Assembly: GCF_988243305.1 (NCBI RefSeq)
Contig: NZ_OZ547136.1
Strand: one strand, 5' to 3'
DNA: 64,000 bases
Numbering within the stretch: position 1 is the first letter of the stretch; every line of letters begins with the position of its first letter. Below, in pieces: positions 21,120 to 25,233 of this stretch. Both the position numbers and the translations under genes were made by a program. The notes below the pieces were generated by a model. It ran no database searches, had not been told where the DNA came from, and saw nothing but the letters and a program-made list of their open reading frames with translations.

Positions 21120-24010
<2,891 letters not shown>

Positions 24011-24018
24011 GTAACCGT

Positions 24019-24085
24019 GCCGGATGCGGCGTGAACGCCTTATCCGGCCTACAAGGCCCGATAAGCGTTGCGCATCGGGCAATCT
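24019..24085 (+). repeat. BIME / REP pair (GCCGGATGCGGCGTGAACGCCTTATCCGGCCTAC plus inverted partner)
   Basis: Canonical REP sequence and a second palindromic unit immediately after the ascB stop. Confidence 0.85.
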
Positions 24086-24107
24086 GGGGTTTGGCATCAG
24101 TCAAAAA

Positions 24108-24527
24108 TCAAAGAAACCATTCCGGCTTAACGCCAAATCGGGCTGAAAGTGCCTTAATGTGGGATATCGTCAGGGATCGTTGTCCAGATAAAATCTGACT
24201 GACCAGGGATTTAGAGCCGATTTCGTTCTTCAAATCCGCATAGGTCAGATTATGTTGATCAATCAGCGTACGAAGTAACGCCACGCCAACCGGCATTGCT
24301 GCAACGGCTTTGTCGAACTCTGCAAACTTTTCGTTATTGTTTTCATATTCTGCAATGCGGCTCGCCAGAAAGTCGATAAGTGGATTGGTGTCATCTTCTT
24401 CAATCAAATATTCGACCAGTTCCAGTGCTTCACGATAATCATCTTCTGAGTCACTGCCTCCCAGAAAGGGGACTGCATTGACCAGTTCTCTTGTTGCTTT
24501 AACAGCGCGTGCAGCATTAGCAGTCAT
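24108..24527 (-). CDS. HigA-family antitoxin-like protein (C-terminal XRE-type HTH)
   Basis: 162-aa ORF; likely start at MTANAARAVKATRELVNAVPFLGG (about 139 aa). Its layout parallels K-12 HigA/YgjM as I recall it (AVAPFLAG ... ALELV ... IGSKS.VS..LSG.R.LT..H...L..RFG). No HigB-sized partner fits upstream. Confidence 0.6.
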   Translation of the reverse strand: MTANAARAVKATRELVNAVPFLGGSDSEDDYREALELVEYLIEEDDTNPLIDFLASRIAEYENNNEKFAEFDKAVAAMPVGVALLRTLIDQHNLTYADLKNEIGSKSLVSQILSGQRSLTISHIKALSARFGVKPEWFL

Positions 24528-24762
24528 TCTTTGTTCTCTCTGTAGTAACGTGTCAGACGCCCACTTTTCTAAAATGCCAGGTTTGCTCGGCATCATAAGG
24601 CATGGTCAGGAGAGGTTTCAGCGCCCGCTTTTGCGCGTATTCGCTGTCACTCATTGGCAGATATTCGGTAAAGCTGGTGGCCTGTGCAGGCAGCACAAAG
24701 CAAAATAAAAAAGCGCACATCCCTGTTCTGATTTTCAATTCCCTGAATTCCTTACTGAAAAA

Positions 24763-25233
24763 CTACTCTTCTTCCACCGCTAGCTGCGCAAATCCACCGT
24801 TCCCTTCCCAGCCTTCCAGCCGTTGATAAACGGTTTCTACCGCGTCTTTAATCGGCTGGGTCATCGGGTAGTAAAAGCCGACGATATCCGGCTGGATGCC
24901 GAGGAAAATCACTTCGCCAATGTCTTCTTTTAACTGGTCGATAAGGTAGTTCAGCGGCATGTTATGGGTAGTCATCATAAACATCTCGGCGATGTCATCC
25001 GGGTCGATGATGCGGATCTCGCCGGGGTTTAGCCCCATATCCGTGGCGTCGACAATCAGCAGTCGCGTAGGGCGCAGTTCACGGATGGCGACGATGTCGT
25101 TTTCCGGTGCGCTACCGCCGTCAATCACCACCCAGTGACCTTTCGGCGCGGCGGCGCACTTTTCCGCCAGCAGCGGACCTGCGCCATCATCGCCCATCAT
25201 GCTATTGCCAACACAGAGTAAAACGTCAGTCAC
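24763..25233 (-). CDS. hycI: Hydrogenase 3 maturation endopeptidase HycI
   Basis: 156 aa recognised as HycI ([20 protein letters not shown]). Confidence 0.95.
   Translation of the reverse strand: MTDVLLCVGNSMMGDDGAGPLLAEKCAAAPKGHWVVIDGGSAPENDIVAIRELRPTRLLIVDATDMGLNPGEIRIIDPDDIAEMFMMTTHNMPLNYLIDQLKEDIGEVIFLGIQPDIVGFYYPMTQPIKDAVETVYQRLEGWEGNGGFAQLAVEEE

Follow-up and report, generated by a model that had tools for sequence, protein, structure and literature searches.

The 64,000-nucleotide stretch of contig NZ_OZ547136.1 (RefSeq assembly GCF_988243305.1), referred to here as the window, carries a small open reading frame (ORF) on the minus strand, 24738..24553, between hycI, the last gene of the formate hydrogenlyase (hyc) operon, and a gene for a HigA-like antitoxin. 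It is very probable that this ORF is a non-functional 5' remnant, that is, a deletion scar, of a conserved 257-codon gene encoding a secreted protein. The homology to the long gene, the junction, its distribution in the population and a constraint weaker than that on higA are direct observations; from them we infer that the remnant has no function. The original prediction, of an ORF of 55–61 codons with a signal-peptide-like N-terminus ending in AQA, agrees with what is seen here. However, its suggestion that the ORF is a gene for a small secreted or membrane peptide does not hold, as the ORF is what remains of the 5' end of the 257-codon gene, with its length and stop set by a 1,032-bp deletion.

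The deletion and its junction

The small ORF is colinear with codons 1–61 of the intact genes of 253–257 amino acids (aa) found in the RefSeq loci L002, L003, L004, L010–L012 and L016. The identity to the intact alleles over these codons is 92–100%, and the position is always directly after hycI. The intact alleles continue as ...WHFRKVGV/AGVTLEKMPNEEDYW... (HFRKVGV/AGVTLEKMP...), whereas the window sequence ends at ...WHFRKVGV.

L002 served as the intact-island reference for the deletion, and its nucleotide alignment with the window contains one single gap of 1,032 bp. The junction lies at 24557/24556, as given by the pairwise alignment and the junction read-out. On the minus strand it reads ...AAAGTGGGCGT/CTGACACGTTACTACAGAGAGAACAAAGAATGACTGCT..., where codon 61 of the long gene stands on the left and the 3' end of higB on the right; no microhomology was seen at this junction. 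The alignment assigns the minus-strand segment 24524..24556 to the last 33 nucleotides (nt) of higB (CTGACACGTTACTACAGAGAGAACAAAGAATGA, ending the protein as ...LTRYYRENKE before the stop). The ribosome-binding region of higA lies in this segment, as does the ATGA in which the higB stop and the higA start overlap. The fusion is out of frame (GT/C TGA), and reading ends one base into the higB remnant. Since the TGA is supplied by higB sequence read out of frame, both the length and the stop of the small ORF are products of the deletion. Codons 62–257 of the parent gene (196 of the 257) are lost, together with a spacer of about 170 bp upstream of higB, which is expected to have held the higBA promoter, and all of higB except its last 11 codons.

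Judging from the outgroup sequences, the deletion is the derived state, because the outgroups are intact: Escherichia albertii has the order hycI-orf251-higB-higA, and in Salmonella enterica and Klebsiella spallanzanii the orthologue follows hycI. The ancestor would have carried hycI, orf257, higB and higA, and a single deletion of 1,032 bp would have brought the final 33 nt of higB, out of frame, directly behind codon 61 of orf257. The event would have taken almost the whole predicted beta-rich domain, the presumed promoter region of higBA and the toxin gene, leaving higA intact and orphaned. Transcription of the remnant as part of the hyc operon, and its translation into a 41-residue exported peptide, may continue, because the start region is intact, hycI is 24 nt away and no terminator-like site was found on this strand between hycI and higA. 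Its sequence would be free to drift, and nothing suggests selection for the peptide.

A chance open frame without coding history has next to no probability. Many ORFs of similar length occur in the window; 6 kb of it contain 64 that reach or exceed 30 aa, and the length of 61 codons is by itself not beyond chance. However, the small ORF is non-random, because it matches codon for codon the 5' end of a conserved gene: the 92–100% identity is to a gene that Escherichia, Salmonella and Klebsiella share and carry at this position in the genome. Hence the homology refutes a chance ORF. The suspicion that the ORF is spurious was right in that it is not an independent gene, and wrong in that it did not arise by chance.

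An independent internal deletion of 535 bp in the parent gene yields a 66-aa remnant in E. coli and Escherichia ruysiae. The left breakpoints of the 1,032-bp deletion (24556–24557) and of the 535-bp deletion (L021 2687–2688) are 5 nt apart in the parent gene, falling in GGGCGT/TGCTG/GCGTGACG, beside a GGCGT...GGCGT direct repeat. This clustering may reflect a deletion hot spot.

The intact gene downstream of hycI

The parent gene is represented, for example, by WP_001341829.1 in strain 02E060 and WP_001305268.1 in Nissle 1917. Orthologues are present in E. albertii, S. enterica (269 aa) and K. spallanzanii (250 aa). Altogether 47 relatives were found; most come from Escherichia, Salmonella and Klebsiella, and a few, distant and 340–350 aa long, are metagenomic. 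Scanning the 247-aa form of the parent against Pfam and NCBIfam gave nothing above threshold. The product is probably a conserved, Sec-exported protein of about 257 aa, predicted to be periplasmic and without an annotated family. Many homologues are of fragment length, and the gene appears to have been repeatedly lost or broken in Escherichia.

The intact E. coli gene and the window ORF agree in the start region, in codons 1–61 with the signal peptide they encode, and in the 24-nt spacing from hycI. The window lacks codons 62–257, which encode almost the whole predicted beta-rich domain. In the AlphaFold2 model of the parent (mean predicted local distance difference test score 69.9, predicted template modelling score 0.69) an all-beta core is confident at approximately residues 41–213. 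Of this modelled structure the remnant has the signal peptide, a linker of low confidence, a single short helix and the initial one or two strands, and it cannot form the parent domain. A Foldseek search with the parent gave nothing significant, and a profile search of PDB sequences gave nothing. A structural lead, for the parent only, is a likeness to periplasmic inhibitor and immunity proteins, PliI (3OD9), X-Tfi XAC2610 (4QTQ) and CarG (4O7J), at a sequence identity of 5–13%, although generic beta-propellers score about as well and none of these comparisons applies to the 61-aa remnant.

A literature search on the hycI/higB island, on toxin-antitoxin systems between ascB and hycI, and on higBA in sequence type 131 (ST131) yielded no description of the locus. 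The absence of the parent gene from K-12 may be the reason.

Start codon and signal peptide

The small ORF comprises 61 codons plus a stop, with the TTG at 24738 as the start, as given by the ORF list and the alignment with intact homologues. Its translation is MKIRTGMCAFLFCFVLPAQATSFTEYLPMSDSEYAQKRALKPLLTMPYDAEQTWHFRKVGV (61 aa). An alternative in-frame ATG at 24720 gives a 55-aa form. On the sequence evidence, the TTG start appears better supported. Firstly, the Klebsiella-type homologues start at the equivalent column (MKEIIW..., MRFIIG..., MKRIIW...). Secondly, the TTG start supplies the K/R n-region typical of signal peptides, and position 4 is only R or K. Thirdly, a candidate Shine-Dalgarno motif AAGGA (24749..24753, minus strand) is situated 10 nt upstream of TTG. 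The PGAP start calls are inconsistent, being ATG with 55 aa in L001 and L007 and TTG with 61 aa in L006, L019 and L020. In all of this annotation the ORF is labelled 'hypothetical protein', with no flag of a pseudogene fragment.

The signal peptide coding region occupies 24679..24738 of the minus strand (MKIRTGMCAFLFCFVLPAQA), as seen by inspection and in the homologue alignment, with the predicted cleavage at AQA/TS. By inspection, it has the features of a Sec substrate of signal peptidase I: K2 and R4 in the n-region, the core MCAFLFCFVLP, then AQA/TS, and no lipobox. The A-x-A/T pattern recurs in the Salmonella and Klebsiella homologues in the same alignment columns. The 61-aa peptide gave zero matches at E<=1 in Pfam and NCBIfam scans.

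Distribution of locus variants

The collection consisted of 5,426 complete E. coli genomes, searched by megablast with the locus, and the interval between ascB and hycI differs between strains. The site may be empty, as in K-12 (L005). It may contain the full island, that is, hycI followed by a "hypothetical protein" of 247–257 aa, higB (103 aa) and higA (L002, also Nissle 1917). Other arrangements are the long gene with higA and without higB (L003, L011), higBA only (L013), the long gene only (L012) and the long gene adjoining an insertion sequence of the IS3 type (L004). The window arrangement, the small ORF with higA, is seen in L001, L006–L009, L019 and L020.

The junction census used a 120-bp query centred on the junction and covered by at least 80%. 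The window junction is present in 834 of the 5,426 genomes, strains of ST131 and ST648 included, and it is 100% identical in the ST131 strains. The full island of 1,742 bp is covered by at least 80% in 748 of the 5,426 genomes, and the 901-bp locus query, at the same coverage, in 1,416. Subtracting the 834 junction carriers from the latter leaves roughly 580 genomes of the type with the long gene and higA and no higB.

The exact 61-aa sequence of the window (P0049) occurs in 243 public contigs and the ST131-type allele in more than 1,000; both are publicly labelled "hypothetical" or "periplasmic or exported protein". The exact DNA allele of the window is found in none of the complete genomes of the collection, the best match being 96.4% over 248 bp. 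In ST131-type genomes (L006 1301–1520; L008; L009) higA is followed by a 145-aa hypothetical protein, WP_000536068.1, and not by ascB. Hence the flank of the window is not ST131-like, despite the identical 120-bp junction region. The hycI annotation in these genomes is one codon shorter (468 bp).

Selective constraint on the remnant

The remnant is unconstrained, and relaxed relative to the adjacent higA. At the nucleotide level, the window-type deletion was sampled in six carrier genomes. Their segregating sites are 12 nonsynonymous and 3 synonymous in the remnant, compared with 3 and 18 in higA (Fisher p=1.2e-4), which is the most informative of the comparisons made. Over the shared 61 codons, the pairwise ratio of nonsynonymous to synonymous polymorphism (pN/pS) reaches 0.76 among remnant alleles, against 0.12 among intact ones.

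Frame-disrupting variation among near-identical loci, named in the original prediction as an argument against a coding role, does exist. Frameshift variants occur at four or more positions in the remnant (P0039, P0042–P0045), fusing it to the higA frame, and the remnant shows none of the purifying selection seen in higA. However, these variants are rare, and part of them could be assembly errors. Single frameshifts in the remnant produce ORFs of 188–209 aa in which the remnant is fused to HigA, one of them annotated as 'HTH-type transcriptional regulator ygjM'.

Several points weigh against decay of the remnant. The sample of six deletion carriers at the nucleotide level is small, and when only the changes confined to remnants are considered (5 nonsynonymous to 2 synonymous), the contrast with the polymorphism of intact alleles (9 to 10) is not significant (p=0.39). 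Residues K2, F12, C13, K4 and N53 of the remnant are present in intact alleles too, and therefore represent standing variation, not decay. The substitutions L12F, S13C and N2K had been considered as signs of decay and were dropped, as the intact E. albertii allele has K2, F12 and C13. The sole change private to the window is L14F. Further, the ORF stays open at 61 codons in nearly all carriers, including about 100 variants in its 90% cluster, and the start region and the signal peptide of the remnant are intact. Signal peptides tolerate substitutions anyway. The open frame in the carriers carries little weight, because 183 nt at a divergence of 2–4% would usually stay open by chance.

The orphan higA and the lost higB

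The downstream gene, higA (24527..24108, minus strand), encodes a protein of 139 aa with a C-terminal helix-turn-helix (HTH) domain of the HTH_3 family, as given by Pfam, a PDB profile match and the alignment. The comparison with 5IFG_B (E=2.5e-35, residues 9–138) and the match to PF01381 (E=2.1e-9) identify it, as far as sequence can tell, as a true HigA paralogue of the YgjM type, in agreement with the earlier designation of the gene as HigA-like. Its score against TIGR02607 is 14.4 bits, below the cut-off of 47.7; we take this model to describe another HigA lineage. The amino-acid sequence of the window HigA does not differ from that of the toxin-linked HigA of L002 (100% identity). The pN/pS ratio is 0.042 for the orphan higA and 0.040 for the toxin-linked one. 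Thus purifying selection acts strongly on the orphan higA but not on the remnant. The frame of higA is open for 23 codons upstream of its ATG, giving a 162-aa ORF from an ATG at 24596 (24108–24596, minus strand), which overlaps the remnant in a different frame.

The small ORF stops with TGA at 24555..24553 and the ATG of higA is at 24527. The adjacency noted earlier is thus correct, while the gap measures 25 nt and not about 26. Being directly upstream of higA on the same strand, the ORF invites the reading that it is the toxin partner of the antitoxin, forming a new toxin-antitoxin pair with the toxin upstream. This has hardly any chance of being true. The true partner is a HigB toxin of 103 aa from the PF09907 family, present at this place in at least 748 genomes with an ATGA stop/start overlap; in L002 it matches PF09907 with E=4.2e-22. 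The small ORF matches no toxin family, carries an export signal, corresponds to the N-terminal part of an unrelated protein of periplasmic type, and is unconstrained. Compared with HigB/RelE toxins, which are cytoplasmic, about 90–110 aa long and overlap the antitoxin gene by the stop and start codons, it has a signal sequence, 61 aa and a 25-nt gap, and the ATGA overlap with higA belongs to the higB remnant, not to the small ORF. The peptide does not resemble RelE or HigB, as had been remarked from the sequence, and Pfam and NCBIfam contain no match to it. A HigB-like toxin is therefore effectively refuted, the real toxin being known and absent here. What remains of the toxin-antitoxin arrangement suspected earlier is the slot: other strains have the PF09907 HigB there, while the small ORF itself is not a toxin.

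The closest known system is the type II HigB-HigA pair of K-12 (YgjN-YgjM; 5IFG), where the toxin gene is upstream. The window gene is a close paralogue of its HigA, and the intact versions of the island have a PF09907 HigB directly upstream of higA with overlapping stop and start codons, in the same order as in K-12. Of the toxin gene, the window retains only 33 nt at the 3' end, and the ORF that has taken its place upstream of higA has no relationship to HigB. Hence the locus is a decayed higBA module of the YgjN/YgjM type beside a truncated neighbour gene. Orphan antitoxins and decayed chromosomal toxin-antitoxin loci, in which the toxin is lost and an intact, conserved antitoxin kept, resemble this situation. 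Unlike in such loci in general, here the loss is mapped to the base, and an unrelated neighbouring gene was cut simultaneously.

At least two different deletions have eliminated higB, and higA is nearly invariant both times (window 24108–24556; L003 1594–1665; L021 2701–2810). The deletion of the L003 type, found in the roughly 580 genomes counted above, is about 422 bp long with a 22-bp filler. Two independent higB deletions keep the last 28–33 nt of higB, which include the ribosome-binding region of higA, with the right breakpoints 4 nt apart. Retention of this 3' end in both cases fits selection for continued expression of higA.

The last observation also bears on the main competitor of a non-functional scar, namely that the remnant was co-opted, either as a leader ORF for the orphan higA, which would be transcribed from hyc with ribosomes ending 25 nt before its start, or as a 41-aa exported peptide that has newly acquired a function. 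We consider this unlikely. The orphan higA is strongly constrained (pN/pS 0.04) and so must be expressed somehow, while the deletion took away both the coupling to higB and the upstream spacer in which the promoter of the operon would be expected. The stop codon of the remnant is followed closely by the ribosome-binding region of higA, the scan of the minus strand between hycI and higA found no terminator-like site, and the two independent deletions retain the last 28–33 nt of higB. On the other hand, the protein sequence of the remnant is unconstrained, although a role requiring only that it be translated is still compatible with that. A weak sigma-70-like site within the remnant (24621..24592) could drive higA without the ORF, and orphan higA loci of the L003 and L021 types keep higA despite different upstream contexts. 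Marginally less likely again is the specific form in which the orphan higA comes under the anaerobic, formate-induced transcription of hyc with reinitiation at higA, or, in a weaker version, the 41-aa peptide has a new function. If this were true, a deletion scar would have rewired an antitoxin-derived regulator or an anti-addiction factor. The non-functional remnant of the 257-codon gene is the preferred explanation.

Surrounding locus

The window DNA is Escherichia coli: its hycE gene is 99.3% identical to that of the nearest complete E. coli genome and 95–99% identical to all others. Along the locus, ascF and ascB on the plus strand are followed by an element of the repetitive extragenic palindromic (REP) type and then, on the minus strand, by the HTH gene, the small ORF, hycI and the rest of the hyc operon. 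The hycI gene (24763..25233, minus strand), identified from the ORF list and its annotation in matching RefSeq loci, ends with TAG at 24765..24763, and the TTG of the remnant is 24 nt downstream of hycI. On the other side, ascB (22574..24010, plus strand; ORF list and RefSeq loci) is the conserved flank beyond the variable region.

The REP-type palindromic element between ascB and higA (24005..24081) marks the edge of the island. It was recognised by a sub-threshold match to the Rfam family naRNA4 (RF02564), with 40.1 and 28.5 bits on the two strands and a gathering score of 59.5. This is the sole match in the Rfam scan of 23800–25000, and it is outside the small ORF. About 178,000 genome-wide matching places of the locus query probably come from this element. 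In the promoter and terminator scan nothing exceeds the shuffled background.

In K. spallanzanii (L015 3422–5814) two genes resembling the SymE toxin and a parDE pair surround the orthologue in the same slot between hycI and ascB. It seems that this interval collects toxin-antitoxin modules across genera.

Implications

Neither a gene fragment nor an orphan antitoxin is an unusual outcome, and the feature described here is ordinary gene decay of an already known kind. A candidate small secreted peptide or toxin is thereby removed from consideration. The RefSeq "hypothetical protein" carried by roughly 15% of complete E. coli genomes turns out to be a pseudogene fragment and should be annotated so. 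The loss of a toxin with retention of its antitoxin is recorded to the exact base in major lineages (ST131, ST648), which is of modest value. The side observations, a conserved gene after hycI and the repeated loss of higB with higA kept, are more interesting than the small ORF itself. The first of these concerns a protein that has no annotation but is conserved and probably periplasmic, and whose gene comes immediately after hycI in Escherichia, Salmonella and Klebsiella.
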